Source of the DNA: a virus
Taxonomy: Duplodnaviria > Heunggongvirae > Uroviricota > Caudoviricetes
DNA length: 64,000 nt
Direction: 5' to 3' (one strand)
Virus record (IMG/VR): IMGVR_UViG_2576861193_000004
Span: 1-64,000 of that record
The position numbers were made by a program, and so were the translations under genes. Below the pieces are notes generated by a model. It did no database searches. It was not told where the DNA came from and saw nothing but the letters and a program-made list of their open reading frames with translations. Positions 15,516-63,723 of the stretch are shown one piece after another (the stretch's first letter is position 1; the number at the start of each line of letters is the position of its first letter).

Positions 15516-15613
15516 GGCTAATCCTTTGTTATGAAAACAAATTATTTACTAGTGTGTTTAATGTAGCACTGCGCGAACAGGGAACTAAGCCATTCGCGCA
15601 GGGAGAAGAGGGG

Positions 15614-25979: not shown

Positions 25980-26022
25980 GTGCTTTCCTTTGTTTTTTAA
26001 ACAAATTGTTTTCTAGTATTAG

Positions 26023-27829: not shown

Positions 27830-27867
27830 ATGCATTGGCGCAATGTACGCGCCAATGCATGATTTTT
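27830..27867. terminator. bidirectional terminator between convergent genes
   Basis: Perfect 12-bp inverted repeat ATGCATTGGCGC / GCGCCAATGCAT with 7-nt loop, followed by gattttt. Confidence 0.6.
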
Positions 27868-28225
27868 AACCTTTCTTCATCAACTCTCGTTTGATTTCAT
27901 CGGTACGCATCGTGACATCGGCAGCGGTGATCGCCTCATTCAATTTCACGATGTCCTCGATTTCCTGCGGTGACTTCTCTGCCAGATGGAAAATGGCTGC
28001 TCGAATCACGTCAGAACGAGTGAACTTCTCGAAGCGAGGGATGAACTTCATCATCTCCAGCAGTTCGAAGTATTCGTCCTCCAGTGACATTGTGCGGCTT
28101 TTAATTTTCTCTTTGCCACGAGTCGGGCGTCCCTGTGGTCTGACTGGTTGGCGCAAAGGAGTTGTGTTCTTAGCCGGTGCATCAGGCTCTTTGCGCTTTG
28201 CTAGGTCACCCATTTTCATGGACAT
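27866..28225 (-). CDS. small basic partner of ParA (ParG-like, putative centromere-binding protein)
   Basis: 119 aa, basic N-terminus; gene start abuts the parA stop. Role inferred from position. Confidence 0.4.
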   Translation of the reverse strand: MSMKMGDLAKRKEPDAPAKNTTPLRQPVRPQGRPTRGKEKIKSRTMSLEDEYFELLEMMKFIPRFEKFTRSDVIRAAIFHLAEKSPQEIEDIVKLNEAITAADVTMRTDEIKRELMKKG

Positions 28226-28893
28226 TATTCTTCTTCCTCCAGACTCAACAGATAATCTACAAATTCTTCAAACTCGGCTTCCGCCTTTTTGTCGCGCTCG
28301 CTACCGGTCATTTCAAAGATAGAACGACCAGACTCTTCCGCATCATCATAGACGTTGCGGTTATACAGATTGACTGGCGCAGACTCGATTCCAAACGTCT
28401 CAACAATCTCTTTAGCCGCCAGAATGCGAGACACTTGTGATGGCAAAGCCGGACACTGGTTCATGACCGCGCGGACCTTCACTTTATCGTTTACATTGCG
28501 AACATTGTCGATAATAGGATCGATGTCACGTAAAGATTTCAAATCACGACGCTTAGGACGCAGCGGGATAATGATAACGTCAGCCATCAGCATCGCTTGT
28601 CGCTGAATTTCGGAGTCGAAGCCACCAGCATCTACCACTACAAACTCAGCTCTACCCTGAAGCGATTTTAGGTGCTTAATGATGTCATCCTGAACGTATG
28701 CAAAAGGAATCAGCTCAAGGTCTTCGTTCTGTCGACGGTCTTCACACCAGCTCGTTGTCGTGCGCTGAATATCTATATCGGTAATATAAACCTTCTTCTT
28801 CTTTTTGACTTTCAGGCAAACGGCAATTTGCTGGGCAACGGTGGATTTGCCAGGCCCGCCCTTTGTGCCGCCAACCACAAAGATCTTGGTCAT
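28225..28893 (-). CDS. parA: ParA-family partition ATPase (small type Ib)
   Basis: Deviant Walker A KIFVVGGTKGGPGKST at N-terminus, 222 aa. Confidence 0.85.
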   Translation of the reverse strand: MTKIFVVGGTKGGPGKSTVAQQIAVCLKVKKKKKVYITDIDIQRTTTSWCEDRRQNEDLELIPFAYVQDDIIKHLKSLQGRAEFVVVDAGGFDSEIQRQAMLMADVIIIPLRPKRRDLKSLRDIDPIIDNVRNVNDKVKVRAVMNQCPALPSQVSRILAAKEIVETFGIESAPVNLYNRNVYDDAEESGRSIFEMTGSERDKKAEAEFEEFVDYLLSLEEEE

Positions 28894-29211
28894 TGGAGAG
28901 TTCCCTTTGCGTATATAATTATCGTCTGAAACAACTTGTTTTCTTATATGTGATATAGCCTAAATGCCTACGGCTGCGGTGTAAAGGTTAAATGGTAGGT
29001 TGTGATTAACAATTGGCAATCATAGCTTGTATTTGTCTGTTGAAAAAAGTAACAATGACCTCTATATTACAAGTACGGTGATATGCCGTACACAATTTGA
29101 TAATGCACACGTAATGGGCTATAGCCTTTTAAAGTAATTTTTGAGTCGAAAACTCAGTTTGAACAGAGGAGATTGATGGCCTTCCTACATCACGGCCATC
29201 AGGAGGAATAC

Positions 29212-39400: not shown

Positions 39401-41174
39401 CTGGTTCTGTAATAGTCCAGACGCCGTTCAAAACAGGCGTTTCAGCCGAAGACAGGGATTTTGAAAACGTAACTTTTGTTATATTTTCGCCAGTTTCAAG
39501 AACATCGCGTTCAACGATTTTGCCTTCATGATTCAGTATTCGAATAAAGCAGCCGCCTTTGGCTAACGACACCGGCGCATCGAGTGTGACGCTGTTTTTG
39601 GTAAACGCCACAATTCGACCTGAGTTACGTTTGCCTGCGCGATATTTGTTCTGAATCAGAACGGTTTCACCAGGCATCAGAAATGACGCGTCTAAGCCGG
39701 CAGTAAATGTAATTACATCCGACTCCATTCTGGCGGTATATAAAAGCCACAAACCAACTCGGTGAGCCTGCCCTCGGCTTGTACAGCCAAATGCTACGAC
39801 TTCTGTCTTACGCTCACCATAACGGCGCATTGCGTCCTGATCTTCAACGTACTCGATGTTTTGCTTATAACCGTCCTCCTTGTTGTTGTAGGTTACGAGC
39901 GCAACGGATGGGCGATCTTTACGCGCAGAACCTTTATAGGTAAACAATCCATCTTTGACGTTAGAGTTGGTAAACATCATTACCGGATCTGATGGGCTAT
40001 CCTGCATGATGTTAACCATGCCACCAGCCCAAAACACCATACCGCGGAATGCACCGGCAATATCCTGAATTAGTCGGTATGCGTCCTGTCGACTGGTGAT
40101 CTGCGTATTGATTGCAAAGCGTTTCTCTTTGCCACCAAAGCCATCATCGACCTCTTCGTCACAATATCGACCAATCTGGTACAACTGGCCAAGGTCAATC
40201 ATAGATTCCGACACATACTGACCAAGGCCATATCGAGCATTGGTCAGCAAATCAAAGAGAATCCACGCGGGGTTCGAAGAAGACAACAGCTTAAAAGTGC
40301 CATCCCATACCCCAGCGTAAGTGTTACTGGACTCGTTATAGTTTGAAGGTACTCGAATTTTTAGGCCACGCACCAGATAAGAGCGAGATGGCATGGTGCT
40401 GCCGAATTGCTCAGAGTTTACCTTCAATCCAACTAAAACAGAGTTTGGATAGTTCATCGGTGTATCGACAATTTCCCCGATTGAATCCACCCATGTATCG
40501 TTATAGAGATACTGGCTACTGTTATCATCGGTAATACGGACTACACGAACCTTGTATGCGCGTCCAGGCTTAGGCAGCTTCAGCTCGTAGCTACGGTAAT
40601 AAACGCCGGTCTTCTTTGCTGTTAGCTTAATGCCAACGCTTTTTTCACCTTCCGCGACCACATCTACAAATGTTGAGTCGCCATTTGCTATCTGGAACTT
40701 GTACTCAACAGTCGTACCGTTCGTGTCACCAGTTTTTTTATCTATGCTTCGCAAAGAAGGAAACTTCATGATGACACGAACCCGATCAGCTTCATCGTTA
40801 TCGATTGAAACCGTTACATAATGTGTTTTTTTTAACTGGATATTGACGGATTTAGGCGTTTCAACGAAATCAAAGCCAGACATTGGAGTCTGGTCTTGTG
40901 AACCGTCGCGAAAATCCCATGTGATTCCGCTGAAGTTGGAGGAACCGTCTTCATTTACAATCGGCAGATCGTCGATAAAAATAGATCTTGCGCCATTTAC
41001 TAAGCCGCCAATTACCCCTTCCCCAAGAAGATCGAGGATAGCGGCCATTGCACGAGAATTTACGGTATCGTCGGCTTCAACCGGTGTACGGCTGGAGCTT
41101 TTGCTGCTTTTTTTACCACCCGCACCGGCAATAAACAGCGGTAGCTTTTTCTTCTTGAACTGTTCCATGTTCAA
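36441..41174 (-). CDS. central tail fiber / host specificity protein (lambda gpJ-like) with embedded coiled-coil repeat rod
   Basis: 1577 aa; N-terminus resembles lambda J; about 13 tandem 32-aa repeats (ISAAI..EQEAR...D.AL..QI.QL.SKV). Confidence 0.85.
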   Translation of the reverse strand: MNMEQFKKKKLPLFIAGAGGKKSSKSSSRTPVEADDTVNSRAMAAILDLLGEGVIGGLVNGARSIFIDDLPIVNEDGSSNFSGITWDFRDGSQDQTPMSGFDFVETPKSVNIQLKKTHYVTVSIDNDEADRVRVIMKFPSLRSIDKKTGDTNGTTVEYKFQIANGDSTFVDVVAEGEKSVGIKLTAKKTGVYYRSYELKLPKPGRAYKVRVVRITDDNSSQYLYNDTWVDSIGEIVDTPMNYPNSVLVGLKVNSEQFGSTMPSRSYLVRGLKIRVPSNYNESSNTYAGVWDGTFKLLSSSNPAWILFDLLTNARYGLGQYVSESMIDLGQLYQIGRYCDEEVDDGFGGKEKRFAINTQITSRQDAYRLIQDIAGAFRGMVFWAGGMVNIMQDSPSDPVMMFTNSNVKDGLFTYKGSARKDRPSVALVTYNNKEDGYKQNIEYVEDQDAMRRYGERKTEVVAFGCTSRGQAHRVGLWLLYTARMESDVITFTAGLDASFLMPGETVLIQNKYRAGKRNSGRIVAFTKNSVTLDAPVSLAKGGCFIRILNHEGKIVERDVLETGENITKVTFSKSLSSAETPVLNGVWTITEPDLEPMRVRIVNIAQGETPGSFDITAVENNPSKYEAIDNGATLIPQNTTVLDPTYSKPSNLQITEGTYLSSPGNLSVKLTATWEGKSPEYWISWRRSDENNVSNWQSARVTEEQYEIVNVAENGRYDFQLYAVSFNGKKTEIISTVYQVLGTMTPPDSPTSLTAVGDYRNVILNWVNPDSVDLDHINVYASQTNNLDTAKLIAESASTTFTHAGLGDSETWYYWVRASNKRGMLSPPNSNLGTEATTRDVLSFLTGKITSSELGQALLEDINSKASQEAVDELNEHINQSVESLEGSVNDVKEDIAELDKQFSDNLADFEIKFNERSDALENAQTELKGEVSATIDKVNEAFEKIDATDAAIVEIENTVSEHDKALANTVEAIKAARDEAAALIAKESEARVEGDAANAKQLEVLQSTVEESSAAVEEMKKTVAEVDRASAELTTNIEALAKTNIDLALRQDEDQHKQMVNNAKIATTQKTFADDMSAMATKVEEIRVEIGEDIKASILEESTARADGDEALAKRVTQLQSKFEGDISAAISTEQEARTSADEALTTQITQLESKVSNDIVAAIKEEQEARATEDSALASQITQLQAKVDDDISAAIRSEQEARASGDSALAKQINQLQSKVDGDISAAITQEQEARASADQALSREINSLRAQTGTDIAAAVAVETKARTDADSALSTQITSLTAKANDLEASLARETTARADGDTALTKEVSSLKAQTAKDISAAVAVETQARTDADSALSSQITKLTSQYKEDIKAAVATETKTRTEQDAALATQITNLESQTAANISAAVTTETTARTQADNALSGRIDTLKAEVDGNTATIQQQATAIADTNKKVSTAWTLKMETSTSGGQKYVAGIALGIDTTGLSQFLVQADRFGLVNSVNGKITTPFVIENSIAYMNGAYIKDGTITNAKVGDLQSTNFVSGRSGWRFGKNGTLEINGNSGGNGRLVINGQRIDVYDDNNVLRVRIGRL
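36950..37900. repeat. tandem about 96-bp repeats encoding the coiled-coil heptad repeats of the J-like protein
   Basis: Periodic recurrence of near-identical DNA segments; generates spurious antisense ORFs (37041.., 37623.., 38050..). Confidence 0.7.
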
Positions 41175-41185
41175 AAAATCCTTGT

Positions 41186-41779
41186 TTACATTAGCTGGTC
41201 AATCGTGATTGAAGAACTCACAACCTGTGAGCCAACCAGAATTTCCTCGCCATAGATAAGTTGTACTGGGTTGCCCTGGTTTTCTGTATTTTGAGGGCCG
41301 TCGAAATAATAAGAGTTCGAGTTATCTGCCTGTCTCACACTTTCGTTAGTGGCTTGCGGCGATATGATTTGTGATATGCCGCCCATCATCAGTGACAAAC
41401 CGAGAGGTGCTAAAGCAGGCATCACTACCGCCGATACAACCAACAAAGCGGCCCCTACTACCGTCTGAAACCACCCAAAAGCAGATCCACCGCTTCCTCG
41501 CGGAACAGGTGTAATGCGGATTTTGGCAATGTTGTCAGACTGCCCCATCATCTGATATTCACTTTCGTCAACAGACCACTTGTGGCCCTGTTTATTGGTG
41601 ATCTGGATGTGGTAACGGTCATAGGTTTTGATATTGCGCTTCATCCATGCTTTAAACCCAGGCTTGTTGGCCTCAATTAAATCCAGAGCCTGTTTTGTAT
41701 TGCGCACCTTTAGATGCCAGTGGCGGCCAAAATGTTTGGCCATAGGGCCGCCAAGCTGCACATGAACTAACTCAGACAC
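41186..41779 (-). CDS. tail assembly protein (lambda gpI-like)
   Basis: 197 aa with C-terminal hydrophobic/Gly-rich region; position between K-like and J-like genes. Confidence 0.75.
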   Translation of the reverse strand: MSELVHVQLGGPMAKHFGRHWHLKVRNTKQALDLIEANKPGFKAWMKRNIKTYDRYHIQITNKQGHKWSVDESEYQMMGQSDNIAKIRITPVPRGSGGSAFGWFQTVVGAALLVVSAVVMPALAPLGLSLMMGGISQIISPQATNESVRQADNSNSYYFDGPQNTENQGNPVQLIYGEEILVGSQVVSSSITIDQLM

Positions 41780-55221: not shown

Positions 55222-56796
55222 TCACTCGTTCTCTTGAGTAGATGAGTCCCCATTCCCTCGGGGTTGATCTTGCCCGCTTTCTTGGGCCGCACCACGATCA
55301 TAAGTAAGTACTGACTTATTTTCAAGGGTATTTAGATCATTTTTTGGAGGAAAATTCAAGAGATCTTTATCAAATTCCTTTTTCATCGCCTCAGTAATGT
55401 TCGGGAAAATCTTCTCAATAAGCATTTCCATCTGGTGACGACGTACAGAGTCCGGTGCCTGAAGTAATGACAGTTTCTCGGCAACAGAAAATTCATCAGT
55501 AAGGCCACGAATATCGAAACTTTCTGGATACGCAATTAAAGAGTGGTCTTCGTCCAGATCTACCCCCATCCATTTCGCAACCAGTAGCATGATTTGGCGT
55601 TCAGCCCTTTCCAGACGCTCTGCTTTTGTGACAAGCAAGCTATTTACACGCTGGAAGTCATACATTTTTGCGGCACCAGATGAATTATCGATTCCCTGTG
55701 CGTTGTCCTGCTTCGTTCGCTCACCAGCTACACCAACTGAATGGTAGATTTCGTTAATCACCGTCTTAATCGTAGTGATGATCATCTGAGCTTGTTTCGG
55801 GTCTGGTGACAGATAAAACGGCTGGTTTCCACCTTCAGAATCGTAGGTGAAGACTCGCTTTGTGCCCATTTCAAGCACTTTAGTGTGGTTTTCATCACCA
55901 GGTAAAAGCGACTGTACCGGTATAGCCAACTGGCTAAATGTCTGATCCTGAATAATGGCATCAAGGTTTGACAGATAGTTTGCAACCGCACGATCAAGAT
56001 AAGCAATATCATCGATCAACGATGGGCTGAAATACGGTGATTCACTTTCTCCAATACAATCAACAGGAAACACAGGAACTACGCCGAGATTATGCGCGCC
56101 GCTGTCCTCTAAAATAACTTTTGCCTGACGACGACCTGCTCCACCAGCCCCCTTCTTCACTTCCTCACGGAACAGATACCACTCGTTTTGTGTCCACAGA
56201 CGATAACGTTGGTATTCCTGACCTGTAGAAGTAAAAGGATCTGCGTCATCGCGAGCGACTTCCACAATTAACGCCCATAACATATTCCCGTCGTCGTCCC
56301 ATGCCACATCCAGCATTTGCTGAGGTGAAATCCAGTAGGCGTAGGCGCGAGCATCTTTCTTTTTCTCGTCAGCTACTGACTCAACATCACCACTCATCGT
56401 GCTATCGACAACAACCCATATGCGACCGTAAATAGACGACTGCAAATCAATAGCGGCCATAAATGAGTCAATAGAGGCATTCTGGCGAGTCGCACGTTTC
56501 CAGAAATTGCGGATCTGCTCTGGTGCCTCTTCGATATTTCTATGAATGTCTTCTTTAAAGAGATATTTGTTGATGAGGTTTACCACCTCACGAGTGTGGT
56601 TGAAGCGATAAGCACGCTCAACTCGCTCCTTAAACTCCTGATCTCCCTCTTTAAAGTAACGAAAGATATTGTCTGTAAACCAACCACGCCCGCCAGCGTA
56701 AGTGCTGGCGAGGAAGTCCCAATGTTCTTTTTTCTTTTCGTATTCCGGGTGGCGTCGCGCCACCAGATCCTTAATTTGTTTGTCGTTCAATTCCAT
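55222..56796 (-). CDS. portal protein
   Basis: 524 aa immediately downstream of the large terminase gene; acidic C-terminus. Confidence 0.7.
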   Translation of the reverse strand: MELNDKQIKDLVARRHPEYEKKKEHWDFLASTYAGGRGWFTDNIFRYFKEGDQEFKERVERAYRFNHTREVVNLINKYLFKEDIHRNIEEAPEQIRNFWKRATRQNASIDSFMAAIDLQSSIYGRIWVVVDSTMSGDVESVADEKKKDARAYAYWISPQQMLDVAWDDDGNMLWALIVEVARDDADPFTSTGQEYQRYRLWTQNEWYLFREEVKKGAGGAGRRQAKVILEDSGAHNLGVVPVFPVDCIGESESPYFSPSLIDDIAYLDRAVANYLSNLDAIIQDQTFSQLAIPVQSLLPGDENHTKVLEMGTKRVFTYDSEGGNQPFYLSPDPKQAQMIITTIKTVINEIYHSVGVAGERTKQDNAQGIDNSSGAAKMYDFQRVNSLLVTKAERLERAERQIMLLVAKWMGVDLDEDHSLIAYPESFDIRGLTDEFSVAEKLSLLQAPDSVRRHQMEMLIEKIFPNITEAMKKEFDKDLLNFPPKNDLNTLENKSVLTYDRGAAQESGQDQPRGNGDSSTQENE

Positions 56797-56822: not shown

Positions 56823-58079
56823 CTATCTAGAACCACCAAGAATAACACGGTTTTTGACTGGATACCTACGATGTACTGGATAGCCCAATGCGTCTGCACT
56901 ATGCTCAATGCCACCTGTCTTATCCATATCTCGTGTTCCAGGCTTGTAGATGACTTTTTCCAATGAATCAATCAAATGCTTGCACTTCGGATCGATATAC
57001 AGCCGGATATCTCCAGATGCGGTCATCAGCATTCGGTTAACAGCATTAACACGATCCGCAATTGGCGGGTGCTTTTTCGAATAATCGACACGTAAGAATC
57101 CCTTCTCTTTGAATATGTCGACGTCAGACTCCCCGCGAGCATGTTGGCGATAAGCACCTGCCGGATCTGGAAATACCGTTATCTGTGATTTCCAGCGCCA
57201 GAAGCGTCTCTCAAGCTCATCACAAACCTCTGCCGTGTTAGAGGAAAAGAGCACCAATTCATCAATTGCCCATAGCTCACCATTTGGCTGAGGTTGCAAA
57301 ATTACTGAAGACATCGGGTCAATGTTGAAGTCCTGCCCTACCCATATAGGCAACCGAGGGTTGAACTGAAGCGGTTTTACATGCACGTTACGATCGAACG
57401 GGTAGTAAACGCGCCCGGACATGTTCTCAAAGCTCGCCAGGTACTCCTGAGCGAACGATTTCGGGTCCATATCGTTCTTAGCAGCTTCAATTTCCGCCGT
57501 AGGCACAAACGGAGAATCGGCAGTTACAAACTGCCAGCTCTTCCACTGTCCCTTTCTTTGCAGCTCTACGTTCTGGCCTATAGTCCACAGTTTGTGAAAT
57601 TCCGAGAAGCCTTTTGGCGTACCAATGATCAGTGCACCGCCGCGTGTCGATGAAAGAGTAGGTCGTAACACCTTGTACCAGGTGTCAGCCTTCATATCCT
57701 GAAATTCATCAAGCACTACAAAATGCAACGCTACGCCGCGCAGAGTGTCAGGCTTATCAGCACCTTTGAGGGCGATCTCCGAACCGTTCTTCAACACGAT
57801 TGTCATCGTGGTGTCGTTCTTTTTCCTAACCCACTTACGAGGCAGAACTTCCTGTAGATCGTCCCACAAAATCTGGCGAGCCATCTGGTAAGTAGGAGCG
57901 ACATACCAGACCCTTTGCTTTTTTTCCTTTGCCGCCGCACGAATAATAGTGGAGATCGACAACCGGGATTTTCCCCAGCGTCGACCAGCACAAACAACTT
58001 TAAATCGATGCGGAGACTGGAAGACTTTCATCTGTCCAGAATGCAGTTGCACAAGACTGAGCGAGGACGGGATTGCCAT
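56823..58079 (-). CDS. terL: terminase large subunit
   Basis: Walker A VCAGRRWGKS, Walker B VVLDEFQ, C-terminal nuclease-like region with conserved acidic residues; 418 aa. Confidence 0.9.
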   Translation of the reverse strand: MAIPSSLSLVQLHSGQMKVFQSPHRFKVVCAGRRWGKSRLSISTIIRAAAKEKKQRVWYVAPTYQMARQILWDDLQEVLPRKWVRKKNDTTMTIVLKNGSEIALKGADKPDTLRGVALHFVVLDEFQDMKADTWYKVLRPTLSSTRGGALIIGTPKGFSEFHKLWTIGQNVELQRKGQWKSWQFVTADSPFVPTAEIEAAKNDMDPKSFAQEYLASFENMSGRVYYPFDRNVHVKPLQFNPRLPIWVGQDFNIDPMSSVILQPQPNGELWAIDELVLFSSNTAEVCDELERRFWRWKSQITVFPDPAGAYRQHARGESDVDIFKEKGFLRVDYSKKHPPIADRVNAVNRMLMTASGDIRLYIDPKCKHLIDSLEKVIYKPGTRDMDKTGGIEHSADALGYPVHRRYPVKNRVILGGSR

Positions 58080-58711
58080 TATTCGTCCTCCCCTTCACTT
58101 CCATCATCTGTCGCATCAAATTCGCTTAGAGCTTCTTCTTCCAACGTCTCAAGCAATTCGTCATCGATGATTTCAGGCTCGTCGTCTTCCTGACGTAATT
58201 TCGCCACCTGGGAAGGCGTAAGCTCACCAAATACCAGGTTCGGAATTTCTTCCTCGTCATTTTCCGCATGATCCATGCCCAATGCTTTGGACGAAACTTC
58301 AAAGCATTTTGCAAGGGTATTACTGGCTCTCTGTAAGCTCTTGAGAGAATCCTCAATCGCCCCTAAAGGCCTACCCTCACGTTTGGCCGTAGTGACTTCG
58401 ACCATCACCATCTGCCCCAACGCATACGCCCAGCCGTCATAACGTGTACGACGTTCTTCTATCTTTTCCGCACGGGCTTTAGCGCGAAGCTCTGCGTCAG
58501 ATTTAAGAGACTCACGAACCATCTTCCCAACAGAGTCCGCGCCTTTCTCTAATCCTCGCTTTTTGAAATGTCTGGAGAGTGTTTCACGACGAATGCCGTA
58601 CTCTTCCTCCAGCTTTGAGAGTGTATATTCGCCTGACGTCCATTTGGCTTCAGCTTCGGCCCACTCCGCTGGTGTCAGGCGAGTTTTTACCTCGTCTTTT
58701 TCGACCGTCAT
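58079..58711 (-). CDS. terS: terminase small subunit (putative)
   Basis: 210 aa, N-terminal HTH-like region and very acidic C-terminus; stop overlaps the terL start. Confidence 0.6.
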   Translation of the reverse strand: MTVEKDEVKTRLTPAEWAEAEAKWTSGEYTLSKLEEEYGIRRETLSRHFKKRGLEKGADSVGKMVRESLKSDAELRAKARAEKIEERRTRYDGWAYALGQMVMVEVTTAKREGRPLGAIEDSLKSLQRASNTLAKCFEVSSKALGMDHAENDEEEIPNLVFGELTPSQVAKLRQEDDEPEIIDDELLETLEEEALSEFDATDDGSEGEDE

Positions 58712-58828
58712 AGATCCCTCTAAAACACACAGAGCGCGTCCATGCGCTCTAAAACAACTTGTTTACTGCATCTGCTAACCAACTTGTTTTCTGGGGTGTT
58801 TAATTAGGTCTGGGCATGTCTTATTAAG

Positions 58829-58883
58829 CCTGCTTCCGTATATATTTAATAAGTTACTTATTATTTATATATACAGAAGCAGG
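58829..58883. repeat. 55-bp imperfect palindrome, copy B (identical to 26880..26934)
   Basis: Exact 55/55 match on the same strand; nested inside a larger inverted repeat (GGTCTGGG ... CCCAGACC); 118..172 nt upstream of the terS start. Confidence 0.9.
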
Positions 58884-58907
58884 TCTTTAAATAAGCTCCC
58901 AGACCGA

Positions 58908-59174
58908 TTACATCACCAGTAACTTCGCTTTGGCTCGACCTAAAGTGGTTAACCCAAGAGTTCGGCGGTGATAGCGATTGTCACTGCGTTGGCGCGTATG
59001 CCCTTTCTCCACCAGCCCCTTTTTTATCAGAGCGCGAATTGAGAACTGGATACTTTGCTTGGTTGTCTTGTACGGCAAAACTTCAAGCAATTCGTCCAGA
59101 TCAAGTAAATGACCTCGCTCATAACCGAGATTGAGCGTTTTGATGATGTCCTTTTGTTTATCGGTTAACGTCAT
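58908..59174 (-). CDS. winged-helix DNA-binding protein
   Basis: 88 aa with segment KQSIQFSIRALIKKGLVEK; AAGGA Shine-Dalgarno overlapping the upstream stop (coupled). Confidence 0.5.
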   Translation of the reverse strand: MTLTDKQKDIIKTLNLGYERGHLLDLDELLEVLPYKTTKQSIQFSIRALIKKGLVEKGHTRQRSDNRYHRRTLGLTTLGRAKAKLLVM

Positions 59175-59183
59175 GGCAAATCC

Positions 59184-60074
59184 TTATGCCGGTAAAGCAA
59201 TTTCTAACGGTTTATCCAAAGGTTGTTTGTCGAATGCCAGCAGTGGCAGCGTGTCAGGCAGTCGACGACCAAAGTCAGGGTTTCGGTACACACCATACAA
59301 CGGAGACGTAAAGCTCAGGTTGTGAATGTCCTTGAGCAGCTTCACAATGCTGGCCTCGTCCACCAGACTGTCGGCAATGTCCTGAATCGTCGTGCCACGA
59401 TTCCGCCCAGCTTTTGCCAGGGAACTGTTCTTGTGGTAGTCCGCCACCAGATCACGCAGTGCACGGCGACGACGAGACTCGCTCATTGCGAACAACTCTT
59501 TGACGATCGCCTCGTTATCACCAGGGTCGGAACGGAAATGGCGCTGGAATACACGCAGTGCACTTTCATAGCTCTTCGGTCGCTCAGGGCGGATGAACTT
59601 AAACCCTGCTTTCATGGCGAAGGGATTGTATTTGCTCATCGAGGACTGGATCTCAATGATTGGCCGGTCATGCATCCTGCTAACCAGGTTAATCATTCGA
59701 TAAGAGACGCCTACGCCACGATACTGAGTATCCACAACTGAGCGACTGATCACCGCAAAGTTGTTATTCACGTACCGACCCCAGTACTGGTTAGCCACGG
59801 TGGTATTAGTGGTTGGTTTCAACTTAGGAAACATGCGGTGGCGAGGTGCCAGCAGTAGTTTCGGGTAAGCCATAACCACGACGCCCACCAGACGGTCATC
59901 AAGTTCGCAGCGATAGTAAGTTGGCGCGAAAGGTTTGCCGTCTGTTTTGTAGTGAAGCGACTTAAGAGCGTGCCAGTCCTCTACAGTTCCCTTTGTGACA
60001 GTCATTCGCTCCAGAAAGTCCAGATGACGCGGAAACTCTTCAGGGCGGTAGCGTTTAATGATGATGTCCGTCAT
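59184..60074 (-). CDS. GNAT-fold acetyltransferase domain protein with C-terminal extension
   Basis: GNAT motif A-like VVDTQYRGVGVSYRMINLV and YNPFAMKAGFKF; 296 aa; start overlaps the ABC ATPase stop by 4 nt. Confidence 0.6.
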   Translation of the reverse strand: MTDIIIKRYRPEEFPRHLDFLERMTVTKGTVEDWHALKSLHYKTDGKPFAPTYYRCELDDRLVGVVVMAYPKLLLAPRHRMFPKLKPTTNTTVANQYWGRYVNNNFAVISRSVVDTQYRGVGVSYRMINLVSRMHDRPIIEIQSSMSKYNPFAMKAGFKFIRPERPKSYESALRVFQRHFRSDPGDNEAIVKELFAMSESRRRRALRDLVADYHKNSSLAKAGRNRGTTIQDIADSLVDEASIVKLLKDIHNLSFTSPLYGVYRNPDFGRRLPDTLPLLAFDKQPLDKPLEIALPA

Positions 60075-60736
60075 AAATGAACCTCATCATGACTACCATT
60101 GTGATATTCCACCTTCACGCGTTCTTTGTAGTGCTTGGTGATCTGCATATCCGGGCGCAGCGCGTTCTTCAGGTCTTCGTGAGTCGTCGCCACCATTACC
60201 GTCGCACCAACCTTTCGAGCGGCACGCTGGAGGTTAGATGCCACAACCTGAGCGGTTACACGGTCTAGAACAGCACCGAACTCGTCAGCAGCCCACACTT
60301 TAGCGCCTGACTCAATCAGTTTGGCAATCTTGAGACGATATTTCTGACCGTCTGACATTTCAGAAGGCTTGCGAACAAACAGATATGCATCGTTCAGACC
60401 AGCCATAGATAACAACCCAAGCGCATCGCTGGTCGTTTTGCCCAACTGATCGATGACGTTAACCTCATTATCGAAGGTAAAATCATCGATGGAGGCTACA
60501 GACAGCCCTTCATCCTTCATCTGTCGTTGCAACTCGCGCAGCACAACGGATTTGCCGGAACCGGATTGGCCGGTGATGTACACCACATCGCCCTGCTTCA
60601 CTTCCAGCTCCAGATTGTCGTAAAGCGTCCACTCTTTTTCGTCCAGGCCAAGCCCGAACGACTCAGCGATTTCCAACGTGCGCGTGGTTTTATTTACGCG
60701 TGTCTGAAACGATACGTTGATGATGTATTTGCTCAT
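60071..60736 (-). CDS. single-cassette ABC-type ATPase (no transmembrane partner)
   Basis: Walker A GQSGSGKS, signature-like MSDGQKYRLKIAKL, Walker B VWAADEF, H-loop ATTHED; 221 aa. Confidence 0.75.
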   Translation of the reverse strand: MSKYIINVSFQTRVNKTTRTLEIAESFGLGLDEKEWTLYDNLELEVKQGDVVYITGQSGSGKSVVLRELQRQMKDEGLSVASIDDFTFDNEVNVIDQLGKTTSDALGLLSMAGLNDAYLFVRKPSEMSDGQKYRLKIAKLIESGAKVWAADEFGAVLDRVTAQVVASNLQRAARKVGATVMVATTHEDLKNALRPDMQITKHYKERVKVEYHNGSHDEVHL

Positions 60737-61401
60737 GCAGCCATCTCCCCGGAAGAGATCTTCTCCGCATATGCCACAAATGCGTCTACACCGCTTTCTC
60801 CCGTCATTTCTTCCATATGGGCAAGCAAATCACCAACAACAATGGCAGAGCCAGCAGGGAGCGTTTTAAAGCCCAATACGTCGACAACACGTACTTCTTC
60901 CGCTGCAACTTCATGACTGATCTCGGTGTGTTCATCCTTCTGTCGTTTAGTTTCTTCGCCAAGATCGATAACTAGCGAGTCGGTGTCCATTTCTTCTGTC
61001 ATGCTGCCAACGAGAACATTCAACTCACGCTCTTCAAAGCCGAAAACCTCGATATCGTCCAGAACAAGCGACTCAAGCTCTTTCTGTAGCTTAATTGCAT
61101 CGTAATCAATGCTGGCAAGTCGGTTATCTTCAAGACGCTTCGCACGAACCTCGTCATCACTGAGATCATCGCGAACAATAACCGGTACGCGCTCAAGTCC
61201 AGCAAAAATTGCAGCCTCACGGCGGCCGTGGCCAGTAATAATTACGTCGTTCTTATCGACCGTAATTGGCTGGTCAAATCCGCGCTTTTTAATGGCTGCG
61301 GCCAGATCTCGGATCTGCTGTTCATCATGCTTTTTGGCATTCATCTCATAGGGAATAAGATCTGCCGGGTCGCGATATACGATTTCAAACTTTTTGGTCA
61401 T
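60733..61401 (-). CDS. ParB/Srx-fold N-terminal domain protein (ParB-like nuclease domain) 1
   Basis: Pattern LIPYEMNAKKHDEQQIRDLAAAIKKRGFDQPITVDKNDVIITGHGRREAAIFAGLERVPV; start ATG overlaps the upstream stop (TAATG). Confidence 0.75.
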   Translation of the reverse strand: MTKKFEIVYRDPADLIPYEMNAKKHDEQQIRDLAAAIKKRGFDQPITVDKNDVIITGHGRREAAIFAGLERVPVIVRDDLSDDEVRAKRLEDNRLASIDYDAIKLQKELESLVLDDIEVFGFEERELNVLVGSMTEEMDTDSLVIDLGEETKRQKDEHTEISHEVAAEEVRVVDVLGFKTLPAGSAIVVGDLLAHMEEMTGESGVDAFVAYAEKISSGEMAA

Positions 61402-62081
61402 TACATACGCTCCTTGTAGTAGTCGACCAGCCACACCAGAGCCTCACCAGCGTTTTCCATTTCATTGCCAGTATTAATTGCCTGGTCTTTGATGATGTTT
61501 TTTATGGTTTCTGCAACGCGATCTGACGCATCGAAAGTTACTTTGAAGCGCATGGTCTGATGTTCCGCACCGACACGTTCGGTTTTCTCTCGTTTGTCGG
61601 TATCGACAGGCTCATCACTACCACGAGACAACGCCTCCAGTGCTTCAAGGTCGATTGCCGCCTCTTTTGCTAAAACCATCGAGATTTCGTCGTCATACGG
61701 GGCGATTTCAGACAGTTGATAGTCAAGTTCTGACTGAATTTCTTCAATGAAGCGCTGCAATGCGATTTGGTCGTCTTCACCGTATCGCTCGTTGTCCACC
61801 AGTGACATCTGTTTAGCTACGACATCGCTAATTTTGCCCACAGAAAGCACCGGAACCGTTGAAATTCCTTGCTCAATAGCAGCACGCCAGCGATGTTCGC
61901 CGCCGAGGATTTCAAAAAATCCATCTTCAAGTTCACGAGCCAAAATTGGCTTAAAAAAGCCCAATTTTTCGATAGAACCTTTCAGTTTTTCAAAATTCTG
62001 CGCACCAACCGAATTGGTGTTCCAGGTATTCGGGCGAAGGTTGGCAACATCAACCTGCAAAATCGTGATTTTTACATCCAT
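61401..62081 (-). CDS. ParB/Srx-fold N-terminal domain protein (ParB-like nuclease domain) 2
   Basis: Pattern LRPNTWNTN...KLKGSIEKLGFFKPILAREL..GFFEILGGEHRWRAAIEQGISTVPV; start set to ATG 62081 (track start 62099 is GTG). Confidence 0.7.
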   Translation of the reverse strand: MDVKITILQVDVANLRPNTWNTNSVGAQNFEKLKGSIEKLGFFKPILARELEDGFFEILGGEHRWRAAIEQGISTVPVLSVGKISDVVAKQMSLVDNERYGEDDQIALQRFIEEIQSELDYQLSEIAPYDDEISMVLAKEAAIDLEALEALSRGSDEPVDTDKREKTERVGAEHQTMRFKVTFDASDRVAETIKNIIKDQAINTGNEMENAGEALVWLVDYYKERM

Positions 62082-62163
62082 TTTATTGCTACAATCCACT
62101 ATGTAATCACTTACTTATTATAATAGCCAAATAACATACAAAAGGCACTAAGGAAAGAGGTTT

Positions 62164-63723
62164 ATGACTGTTCGGATTGTATCTAACGCAGTAAATGCAC
62201 TTATTTCTGGCGCAGATGACAAGGTAAAGCAACTGGTGCAACAGATGTTGAGCTACGAAGTCGAGACTGGCGACTGGAAGGGCACAAGCACGATGTTCAA
62301 CTGGAGTAAAAACTCGTTCCCTGCTGGCTTTGCCAAGCCTGTAGCGGCGAACTTGAACAAGGCGGGCATCAAATGTGTTCATATCCGCAAAGACAAAGCC
62401 CCGGCGCTTGGAAAGCCAAATCCGGCGGTCAACCCATTCCCATACAATCCTGATTATGCATATCAGGATCAGACTGTGGAAACACTGGTTCGAGAGGGAA
62501 TGATGATTGCGCAGATCGCTACTGGTGGCGGGAAATCTAATGTTGCCTGCAAAGCAGCTGCACGTATCGGTCGAATGACATTATTTTTAACAACCCGCTC
62601 TGTTCTGATGTTTCAGATGGCCGAAAACTTCCAGAGATCCATCGACTACCGCGCCGAAAATGGCGAACCGTGGTTAAAAGACCAAAAGGTTGGAGTCATT
62701 GGCTCGGGTGAGTTCCAGGTATCACGACATATCAACGTCGCTACAGTTCAAACTCTGGCAAGTTTCCTTGAAGAACCACCACGCGATGCAACTCCAGATA
62801 AGAAGAGCTACCACCTCAAACGTCGGGACTTGGTGAAACGCTTCCTTTCAAGTGTGTCTCTTCTTATTCTGGAAGAGGCGCATGAGTCTTCAGGCTCTAA
62901 TTTCTATGACATCGCCAGATTATGTGCGAACGCAGACTATCGCCTGGCGCTTACGGCAACGCCGTTCATGAAGGATTCTACGGAAGCCAACATGCGTCTG
63001 ATGGCAGTGGCCGGGCGAATTGAAATAAAAGTCACGGAAAAGTATCTGATTGATAGAGGCATTCTGGCAAAGCCATACTTCCTTTATCATAAAGTTGCCT
63101 ACAAGCCGGACGAGGCCAGAATCAAGGCAGAACTTGCCAACAAACACCTCAATTTTAGAGTAGGTATGAGCACTGCCTACCAAAAGGCTTATCAGTTGGG
63201 GATCGTGTATAATTTGGGACGTAATGAGGCCATTGTTCGCGAAGCATTGCTCTATAAGCAACATTCTCTCAATTGTATGACTCTGGTTCGTCTTAAACGC
63301 CACGGGCAAATCCTGATGGAAATGATGAAAGAGTCCGGCCTTAGAGTTGACTTCATTTATGGGGAATCGAACCAGTCGACAAGGCAAGCAAAGCTGAACA
63401 GTTTAGCGTCTGGCGACATAGATGTTTTAATAGGCTCGACTATTCTGGATGTCGGTGTTGATGTGCCAAACGTTGGTGCGGTCATTCTTGCTGGTGGTGG
63501 GAAAGCAGAAGTTGAAATGAGACAACGTGTCGGTCGTGGCTTACGAGCCAAGAAGAATCAGGCAAACGTGTGTTTTGTCACTGATTTCATTGACATTAGC
63601 AACAAATACCTGTTGTCTCACTCTTATGAGCGAAAACACATCATCGACACCACACCTGGCTTTGCAGAAGGTGTATTGCCTGTTGATGGCGCATTCGATT
63701 TTGGAGTTCTGAAACGAGATTAG
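62164..63723 (+). CDS. SF2 DEAD/DEAH-box DNA helicase (UvsW-like candidate)
   Basis: Motif I ATGGGKS, motif II LEEAHE, motif III TATP, motif VI RQRVGRGLR; 519 aa; transcribed divergently from the ParB operon. Confidence 0.85.
   Translation: MTVRIVSNAVNALISGADDKVKQLVQQMLSYEVETGDWKGTSTMFNWSKNSFPAGFAKPVAANLNKAGIKCVHIRKDKAPALGKPNPAVNPFPYNPDYAYQDQTVETLVREGMMIAQIATGGGKSNVACKAAARIGRMTLFLTTRSVLMFQMAENFQRSIDYRAENGEPWLKDQKVGVIGSGEFQVSRHINVATVQTLASFLEEPPRDATPDKKSYHLKRRDLVKRFLSSVSLLILEEAHESSGSNFYDIARLCANADYRLALTATPFMKDSTEANMRLMAVAGRIEIKVTEKYLIDRGILAKPYFLYHKVAYKPDEARIKAELANKHLNFRVGMSTAYQKAYQLGIVYNLGRNEAIVREALLYKQHSLNCMTLVRLKRHGQILMEMMKESGLRVDFIYGESNQSTRQAKLNSLASGDIDVLIGSTILDVGVDVPNVGAVILAGGGKAEVEMRQRVGRGLRAKKNQANVCFVTDFIDISNKYLLSHSYERKHIIDTTPGFAEGVLPVDGAFDFGVLKRD

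Follow-up and report, generated by a model that had tools for sequence, protein, structure and literature searches.

An operon of ParB-like, ABC ATPase and GNAT genes upstream of the terminase of SSU5-type phage-plasmids is probably an undescribed DNA-handling enzyme machine

A five-gene operon was analysed in a stretch of 64,000 nucleotides (the window; positions 1 to 64,000 of the IMG/VR virus record IMGVR_UViG_2576861193_000004), which represents an Escherichia coli SSU5-type phage-plasmid. The operon precedes the terminase genes and encodes two ParB-like proteins (ParB1 and ParB2), an ABC ATPase, a GNAT-like protein and a small, probably winged helix-turn-helix protein. It is probably an undescribed DNA-handling enzyme machine, perhaps a DNA-modifying one. 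The universal core of the module is ParB, ABC and GNAT, and the second ParB and the winged-helix protein are limited to the clade of the phages SSU5, nickie and RHEph10. The ABC and GNAT genes of the window match, domain for domain, the two halves of a fused ABC-GNAT family of unrelated phages. Since this family has no known function, membership in it leaves the mechanism unexplained. An earlier note on this DNA had stated that the gene combination corresponds to no canonical partition system, no terminase and no named defence or modification system. This held, as neither Pfam, NCBIfam, PHROGs and PADLOC nor the literature searched assigned a function to the operon genes.

The profile of the window GNAT family was searched against 1.84 billion representatives, resulting in 899 clusters, of which the best 148 were classified. 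ABC-GNAT fusions accounted for 67 of these 148 clusters. Their ABC halves matched the ABC profile of the window family at 1e-20 to 1e-82, mostly below 1e-40, and the GNAT profile matched fusions of approximately 360-560 amino acids at 1e-19 to 1e-32. Triple fusions of ParB, in part with a zinc ribbon, ABC and GNAT made up four clusters, with the ParB motifs NPN, GEQR and NK in their N-termini. The GNAT domain stood alone in 77 clusters, many of them fragments. Distant ABC homologues in the phage collection were proteins of approximately 356-401 amino acids comprising ABC_tran and a Pfam-significant GNAT domain. ABC_tran and Acetyltransf_1 were both detected by Pfam in the fused proteins of the phages Jace, SL25, LE4 and Axumite, and scores for Acetyltransf_1 in fused relatives were 35.9 and 37.6 bits (cutoff 20.7). 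With hhalign, the window GNAT aligned to the C-terminal halves of the LE4, Axumite and Jace proteins with E-values of 5e-5 to 1e-3. The motifs W..L..HY and R.VV..Y.G.G were common to the window GNAT family and these C-terminal halves. Both halves of the fusion were specifically related to the window proteins, occurring as adjacent or as fused genes. Clustering at 90% identity gave more than 6,119 clusters for the SL25-type fusion alone.

The description of an 'orphan' ABC ATPase beside a GNAT protein in the earlier note can be refined: the two proteins are the two halves of a catalogued, unstudied fusion family. Its name in the sources, 'ABC-type ATPase fused to/with a predicted acetyltransferase domain', is already used for the window proteins in the annotations of phage Cyrano and of JGI, and we take the family to be COG2401/MK0520. 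In contrast to the fused family, the window halves are separate, translationally coupled genes, and SSU5 and many relatives have a small variable open reading frame (ORF) between them. A ParB_N gene was located directly before the fusion, usually overlapping it, in Gordonia phage Axumite, Rhodococcus phage Jace, Arthrobacter phage EastWest, Leptospira phage LE4 and Pseudoalteromonas phage SL25. Marine contigs carried ParB_N, ABC-GNAT, a gene for 153 amino acids, Terminase_3 and portal in this order, and gp1 to gp4 of Axumite were ParB, ABC-GNAT, a formyltransferase-like protein and terminase. The fusions indicate that ParB, ABC and GNAT act together, and it is very probable that they form one machine, presumably as a complex.

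The region 58700-62200 shared 98.4-99.2% identity with the Escherichia phages CMS-2020a, PhiR41_1 and Cyrano, compared with 85% for Salmonella phage SSU5 and 81% for Klebsiella phage-plasmids. A locus scan with one genome per species gave 29 loci, most of them on contigs of approximately 100-115 kb from Gamma-, Beta- and Alphaproteobacteria. The order helicase (divergent), ParB1, ParB2, ABC, GNAT, winged-helix gene (where present), terS, terL and portal was found in nearly all 29 loci and was kept at protein identities down to 37-45%. One 5-kb contig held the part from ABC to terL only. Isolated siphoviruses of approximately 106-122 kb showed the same order, namely Pseudomonas phage nickie, Rhizobium phage RHEph10 and its relatives, and phages of Stenotrophomonas and Xanthomonas. 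The divergent helicase of superfamily 2 (SF2), reported in the earlier note and verified here by ORFs and domain matches, was retained in nearly all related loci in which that flank was present. All catalytic motifs were invariant across the relatives. The neighbourhood survey that the earlier note had called for revealed a conserved gene order within the clade and a recurrence of ParB-ABC-GNAT across phyla. The operon is a conserved core of the phage clade, not a variable accessory island. In PLSDB, the module was present in 772 plasmids, including 307 from Klebsiella, 218 from Escherichia, 91 from Enterobacter, 62 from Yersinia and 49 from Salmonella. The SSU5-type phage-plasmids of Salmonella and Yersinia pestis are presumably pHCM2 and pMT1.

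Outside this clade, the genomic contexts point to a tie of the ABC-GNAT core to phage DNA replication and packaging. The module was located directly upstream of terS, terL and portal genes in at least five unrelated lineages with different terminases, and one triple fusion adjoined, on the upstream side, a terS-like gene, Terminase_6N and portal. Another triple fusion was positioned between N6/N4 and C5 DNA methyltransferases. Two architectures combined a family-B DNA polymerase with ABC-GNAT in one protein (P0447 and P0422). The 1,260-amino-acid form with exonuclease and polymerase domains (P0447, locus L130:6001-9783) was present on at least 24 metagenomic contigs, within a replication module of Prim-Pol, RecA, RNA ligase and SMC-like genes. 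Another ABC-GNAT fusion lay directly upstream of a DnaE-type polymerase, and other members had DnaB, DHH and gyrase genes around them or were flanked by primase and helicase.

Several single loci of the family showed further particularities. Directly downstream of a 908-amino-acid ABC-GNAT protein (P0478), an ASCH-domain gene was detected (L138:7859-8119; 33.3 bits, cutoff 21.2). The ASCH family includes N4-acetylcytidine amidohydrolases, and this neighbour is a weak hint, from a single locus, at acyl-cytosine chemistry. Axumite gp3 (L116:1805-2452), annotated as 'tRNA-methyltransferase', scored 35.6 bits for Formyl_trans_N (cutoff 26.1), so that this operon would contain a second amine-acylating enzyme. 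In Enterococcus phage 9184 (L122:2857-6373), a stand-alone ABC gene with 25% identity was located between two ORFs annotated as 'DNA polymerase', representing either a split polymerase gene or an insertion. One ABC-GNAT fusion of 847 amino acids (P0405) contained a LAGLIDADG/Hint intein at the Walker B region of its ABC domain, and an archaeal relative carried a TFIIB repeat.

Both ParB proteins exceeded the Pfam cutoff for ParB_N of 26.3 bits, with 49.9 bits for ParB1 and 35.1 bits for ParB2. Boxes II and III, GGEHR/GHGRR and DNER/DNR, were invariant in the respective families, as expected of ParB/Srx N-domains, and both proteins were acidic with an isoelectric point (pI) of approximately 4.5. 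ParB1 is the more canonical of the two. It matched phrog_723 (2.7e-79), and its phmmer alignment to Spo0J (1vz0) covered residues 7-154; further matches were structures of CTP-binding ParB and Noc proteins. GGxHR, DN.RYG and an N-terminal N..N were invariant in 13-25 relatives of ParB1. ParB2 matched phrog_930 (3e-112) and, across its N-terminal part, phrog_498 'DNA methyltransferase' (5e-32); PADLOC MTase_II was matched with 3.7e-17. GHGR and DN were invariant in an alignment of 25-26 diverse relatives, and the ParB genes that occur singly in SL25, EastWest, Jace, Axumite and LE4 could be aligned with ParB2. ParB2 is of the ParB/Srx type that is found fused to phage DNA methyltransferases and that partners ABC-GNAT elsewhere. 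Its predicted structure, based on a two-sequence alignment, had a pLDDT of 42.

The ABC protein scored 50.1 bits for ABC_tran (cutoff 25) and matched phrog_293 (6e-59). Walker A (GQSGSGKS), the signature (MSDGQ), Walker B with the catalytic glutamate (WAADEF) and the H-loop (TTHE) followed each other in canonical order and were kept in 26 relatives. The protein is a soluble single cassette with the family-specific N-terminal insert R..L.IAE.FGLG. The nearest solved structures by sequence were transporter-type nucleotide-binding domains. A homologue search with this protein yielded near-identical relatives only. Since no membrane permease was present in the operon or any syntenic locus, a true ABC transporter was rejected, and annotations as 'ABC transporter' are misleading. 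The earlier note had allowed for the ParB- and ABC-like motifs being spurious; they are genuine and conserved in the relatives.

The GNAT-like protein had a GNAT alpha/beta fold with a helical insertion of approximately 90 residues. It was basic (pI 9.8), as was its family uniformly (median pI 9.5). The pyrophosphate-binding loop expected after strand 4 (R/Q-x-x-G-x-G/A) was present as Y-R119-G-V-G122-V-S, with R119 and G122 invariant in 28 diverse members; many further residues were conserved in the alignment of 25-26 relatives. A search of the family profile against PDB sequences returned chance coiled-coil matches only, and a scan of IMG/VR with the GNAT profile gave close relatives for the most part. 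The protein is predicted to be acyl-CoA transferase-like, corresponding to the C-terminal half of the fused family. The small protein of 88 amino acids (pI 10.2) matched phrog_900 (1.9e-45). Its similarity to winged-helix families was weak (LexA_DNA_bind, E 0.07; Sta1 and Lrs14, E 0.003-0.004); the protein, called winged-helix in the earlier note, is probably a winged helix-turn-helix. Its gene was present in 20 of 25 diverse loci and was much less conserved than the enzymes.

The five proteins are catalogued as PHROGs 723, 930, 293, 886 and 900, and the annotations of L032, L033 and NC_018843 contain systematic errors. ParB2 homologues were called 'DNA methyltransferase' while comprising a ParB domain only. 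The GNAT-like protein was termed 'ABC transporter ATP-binding subunit' (phrog_886), and the ABC protein was named 'ABC transporter' without any permease.

The ORF listing and the minus-strand sequence bore out that the five genes are consecutive and overlap or abut (Table 1). The end coordinate 62099 of the earlier note corresponds to a GTG upstream of the ParB1 ATG at 62081. By our own count, overlapping stop and start codons occurred in approximately one quarter of the same-strand neighbours in the SSU5 annotation, and four successive overlaps involved small ORFs at 40950-41776. Because such overlaps are common in this phage type, translational coupling alone is weak evidence of a complex and is not unusual in this genome. 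The proposal of one functional unit is strongly supported nevertheless, by conserved synteny and natural fusions instead of coupling.

Table 1. Features of the operon and its surroundings in the window
Feature	Position	Strand	Remarks
SF2 helicase (ResIII/DEAD + Helicase_C)	62164..63723	+	Divergent, conserved neighbour of the operon
Intergenic, ParB1 to SF2 helicase	62082..62163	.	82 bp, divergent
ParB1	62081..61401 from ATG (226 amino acids), or GTG at 62099 (232 amino acids)	-	ORF listing and sequence
ParB2	60733..61401	-	222 amino acids; one base common to ParB1 (TAATG)
ABC ATPase	60071..60736	-	221 amino acids; ATGA overlap with ParB2
GNAT-like gene	59184..60074	-	296 amino acids; ATGA overlap with ABC gene
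Small gene, probably winged helix-turn-helix	58908..59174	-	88 amino acids; 9-nt gap after GNAT, TAAGGA across stop
Intergenic, operon to terS	58712..58907	.	196 bp, structured
terS-like helix-turn-helix protein	58711..58079	-	Directly downstream of operon; phrog_867 'DNA binding domain'
terL	58079..56823	-	Terminase_6N/6C and PHROG terminase family
Portal	56796..55222	-	PHROG portal family
AAACAA-N-TTGTTT copies	58752-58764 (exact), 58777-58789 (one mismatch), 28929-28941, 25999-26011, 15535-15547		

The junction between the ABC and GNAT genes varied among relatives. SSU5, Klebsiella and many E. coli relatives carried a coupled ORF of 79 amino acids (MPDLKIVELKPSKEADNN...) without a Pfam match at this position. 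In the lineage of the window, with Cyrano and PhiR41_1, this ORF was cleanly deleted, with a loss of approximately 230 bp (60071-60100 compared with L003:7740-7995), and the ABC protein had eight additional residues running into the ATGA overlap. In RHEph10, the same slot was occupied by gp080 (L033:6393-6695), a Tad2-like anti-Thoeris protein (DUF2829; 81.8 bits, cutoff 25), indicating that counter-defence genes lodge at this locus. The chromosome of Halomonas sulfidaeris (L031) held the whole block from helicase to portal, apparently as a decaying prophage remnant; helicase, ParB2, GNAT, terS, terL and portal were each broken up into multiple ORFs. Copies of the module with 99%, 90% and 44% identity (L005, L006 and L013) were found in metagenome-assembled genomes labelled Bacillota, Candidatus Fimivivens and Candidatus Saccharibacteria, probably due to binning contamination by phage or plasmid contigs.

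As the function of the operon, a nucleoside triphosphate (NTP)-driven acyltransferase machine acting on phage DNA around replication and packaging, possibly for a Mom-like DNA modification, is tentatively proposed. That the machine serves phage DNA metabolism or packaging is likely. Covalent modification of DNA by it is doubtful, and more doubtful still is the specific chemistry of an ATP- or NTP-gated acylation of phage DNA or incoming nucleotides, giving for example N-acylated cytosine or adenine. A DNA-directed acyltransferase is favoured because the GNAT is basic, ParB2 is close to methyltransferase-fused ParB proteins and the Dnd and Dpd systems combine like parts. In the phage methyltransferase fusions, a ParB2-like domain is joined to a DNA-modifying catalytic domain.

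Under this proposal, the operon would encode one multi-subunit machine of the lytic programme, whose target is the DNA of the phage itself as replication gives way to packaging. Its catalytic core would be an ATP-driven acyl-CoA transferase composed of the ABC ATPase and the basic GNAT, split here and fused in most relatives, with ParB/Srx-fold, NTP-binding proteins as obligate partners. ParB2 would be the ancestral partner and ParB1 a Spo0J-like paralogue added in the SSU5/nickie/RHEph10 clade, while the small winged-helix protein may be a clade-specific DNA-binding accessory or regulator. In the likeliest chemistry, acyl-CoA would donate an acyl group either to DNA, as with Mom of phage Mu, or to a nucleotide or a substrate bound to DNA. 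The ABC protein would dimerise in an ATP-dependent manner, and this, together with nucleotide binding by ParB, would gate or target the reaction. If DNA is acylated, the activity would be coupled to replication in lineages with polymerase fusions of the core, and to packaging in those with the core upstream of the terminase.

Several observations weigh against this proposal. The strong acidity of both ParB paralogues fits poorly to extensive DNA contact, and ParB1 and ParB2 have no known parS-like site. The ABC protein resembles transporter-type domains, not the DNA-binding class of SMC, Rad50 and DndD. The resemblance of the GNAT to Mom is barely above the level of generic GNATs, and the SSU5 genome has separate DNA methyltransferases. 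The literature searched contained neither a report of unusual bases in these phages nor an experiment or publication on the function of the operon. The site upstream of terS suits a packaging accessory equally well.

Among characterised systems, Mom, a GNAT-fold DNA adenine methylcarbamoyl-modifying enzyme, is not known to work with ABC or ParB partners, is encoded by an accessory gene at the genome end and does not have the helical insertion of approximately 90 residues. Sequence similarity between Mom (PDB 8bv8) and the window GNAT was not detectable, and the structural score was hardly better than for generic GNATs. The fusions of ParB domains with DNA methyltransferases (phrog_498; PADLOC MTase_II PDLC03229), with whose N-terminal approximately 150 residues ParB2 aligned (5e-32 and 4e-17), likewise couple a ParB/Srx domain to an enzyme. 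The window differs from them in having no methyltransferase domain, the coupled enzyme being ABC and GNAT. The label 'DNA methyltransferase' given to ParB2 homologues in RefSeq and PHROGs is an annotation carry-over.

Dnd phosphorothioation combines the ParB-family DndB and the ABC ATPase DndD with DndC/A/E, and the Dpd 7-deazaguanine system combines the ParB-like ATPase DpdB with DpdA (PMC10853773, PMC12839542). Like the operon, both associate an NTPase of the ParB superfamily with an ATPase and a modifying enzyme. None of the signature enzymes DndA, DndC, DndE, DpdA and DpdC was detected in the operon by PADLOC, in which the ABC protein matched DndF marginally (E 0.002) and the neighbouring helicase had weak matches to DpdF. 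Moreover, DndD is SMC-like with a coiled coil, whereas the window ABC is a compact transporter-type domain. In the window, the modifier would be a GNAT, the element is a phage and not a host defence island, and there is no restriction partner. The N-domains of the window ParB proteins share the three ParB boxes with the CTPase clamps Spo0J, Noc and KorB. ParB1 has GEHRWRAA and DNERY at the positions of GERRxRAA and ENLQR in Spo0J, and the alignment extends through the helix-turn-helix region. The two ParB proteins differ from these clamps in their unrelated C-terminal halves, strong acidity, scores below curated cutoffs, the lack of an adjacent ParA and an identified parS, and in having ABC and GNAT as partners.

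The location beside the terminase bears on an alternative in which the operon is a packaging accessory. Recognition or nicking of the packaging site would fall to the ParB-like proteins, a task of HNH endonucleases in HK97-type cos phages. ABC and GNAT would regulate this step or prepare terminase, portal or DNA ends, and the operon would set the specificity or efficiency of packaging. The module lies directly upstream of terS-terL-portal in the SSU5 clade, likewise precedes different terminase families in unrelated lineages (Axumite, LE4, SL25 and the marine contigs L126 and L133), and is separated from terS by a structured spacer with palindromes. In other phages, ParB-like genes alone are located upstream of the terminase, e.g. 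DLP3 gp104. ParB/Srx proteins are able to nick DNA (cited in PMC12839542), and a Nickievirus terL groups with 3'-cos phages (PMC8537276). This role is unlikely all the same, as ABC-GNAT also occurs far from the terminase and without ParB (polB fusion, DnaE neighbour, and DnaB, primase and helicase modules), a separate terS-like gene is already in place, and we know of no precedent for an acyltransferase in packaging. Slightly less probable again is an acetylation of proteins for host takeover or counter-defence, with a nucleoid protein, polymerase, nuclease or defence sensor as possible target and ABC and ParB as nucleotide-dependent regulators or adaptors. The acidic ParB proteins could then be protein partners or DNA mimics, and the Tad2-like anti-Thoeris gene within the RHEph10 operon would be in line with counter-defence. 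That gene is, however, a lineage-specific insert in the variable slot, outside the module. A strict core with fixed synteny across distant hosts is unusual for fast-turnover counter-defence genes, and both the basic GNAT and the recurring links to DNA polymerases and DNA methyltransferases, by fusion or as neighbours, point to DNA.

A role in defence or superinfection exclusion, by which the resident phage-plasmid would protect the lysogen, is disfavoured as very improbable; exclusion had been among the options of the earlier note. ParB/Srx domains and ABC-like ATPases are known in defence systems (GmrSD, Dnd, Septu-like), and the ABC protein had weak PADLOC matches to mad3/mad8 and PtuA. No PADLOC 2.0 system model was matched by the operon proteins as a set, the GNAT was unmatched and the ParB matches were to N-terminal domains of methyltransferases. 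CYRAN_119-123 are missing from the genes listed as expressed in the Cyrano lysogen by the LF82 study (PMC9928086), which argues against exclusion or defence and for a DNA-handling role in the lytic cycle. The operon is furthermore a syntenic core with the orientation of late/structural genes, and phages isolated on lawns by plaque formation carry it. Lysogeny-expressed defence or exclusion was rejected on the basis of the lysogen expression list, the core synteny and the missing PADLOC system match. A second system for plasmid partition or maintenance, with the ParB proteins as centromere binders, is the least credible alternative. It would account for the ParB_N domains, the likeness of ParB1 to Spo0J over the N-domain and helix-turn-helix region, and the label 'ParB-like partition protein' in PHROG and RefSeq. 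The window has a separate partition locus at 27866..28893, 30 kb away, in agreement with the earlier note: ParA at 28225..28893 (MipZ/ParA by Pfam) and a partner of 119 amino acids at 27866..28225. No ParA adjoins the operon, and both ParB proteins reached 43 bits for TIGR00180 (cutoff 58.45). The genes are also core in phages not known as plasmids and in 33-60-kb phages of other phyla, and in some lineages the ParB genes are fused to ABC-GNAT. A partition function was rejected due to the separate ParA, the absence of an adjacent one and the occurrence in non-plasmid phages.

The spacer between the operon and terS contained an AT-rich hairpin at approximately 58832-58884, with a stem of approximately 24 bp and GC clamps (CCTGCTTC.GTATATATAAATA...TATTAAATATATACGGAAGCAGG). 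The hairpin and the repeats of the spacer were kept in L003 and L006, and in the linear GenBank records of both SSU5 and Cyrano the cut falls within this hairpin (window approximately 58846/7). A GC hairpin followed by a T-run was found at 58751-58722, approximately 10 nt before the ATG of terS, a gene whose name rests on its position and whose family is phrog_867. The palindrome AAACAA-N-TTGTTT occurred five times in the window compared with 0.52 expected, a number reached in none of 100 shuffles. At a distance of 25 bp from each other, two copies shortly precede terS, and another is located 36 nt upstream of the parA start codon. The palindrome may be a shared operator linking partition and late/packaging genes, and the spacer elements are candidates for a terminator, operator or packaging site. 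Promoter and terminator scans gave nothing beyond chance. In the region between ParB1 and the helicase, the single weak sigma-70-like match (minus strand, 62107..62080) was no more than chance gives.

The module is rated among the ParB-assisted nucleic-acid-modifying or -processing modules, its genes being catalogued and often misannotated. It is found in phage-plasmids of Klebsiella, E. coli, Enterobacter, Salmonella and Yersinia pestis and in phages of plant pathogens and rhizobia, and its fused relatives in metagenomes exceed 6,000 protein clusters when grouped at 90% identity. The analysis corrects the widespread wrong labels 'ABC transporter', 'DNA methyltransferase' and 'partition protein'. 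A conserved three-enzyme set beside the terminase, catalytically intact by its motifs and of undescribed function, represents a sizeable gap in phage DNA metabolism. PhiR41_1, 99% identical here, makes a direct test of the question feasible, since E. coli K-12 MG1655 is its recorded host. In the case of a packaging function, the operon would represent a novel type of terminase accessory. In the case of DNA modification, phage anti-restriction would gain a new chemistry and a new enzyme architecture, and sequencing, cloning and transduction of such DNA would be affected. Should DNA acylation prove true, it would be a new kind of modification pathway, shared by thousands of phage lineages across bacterial phyla.

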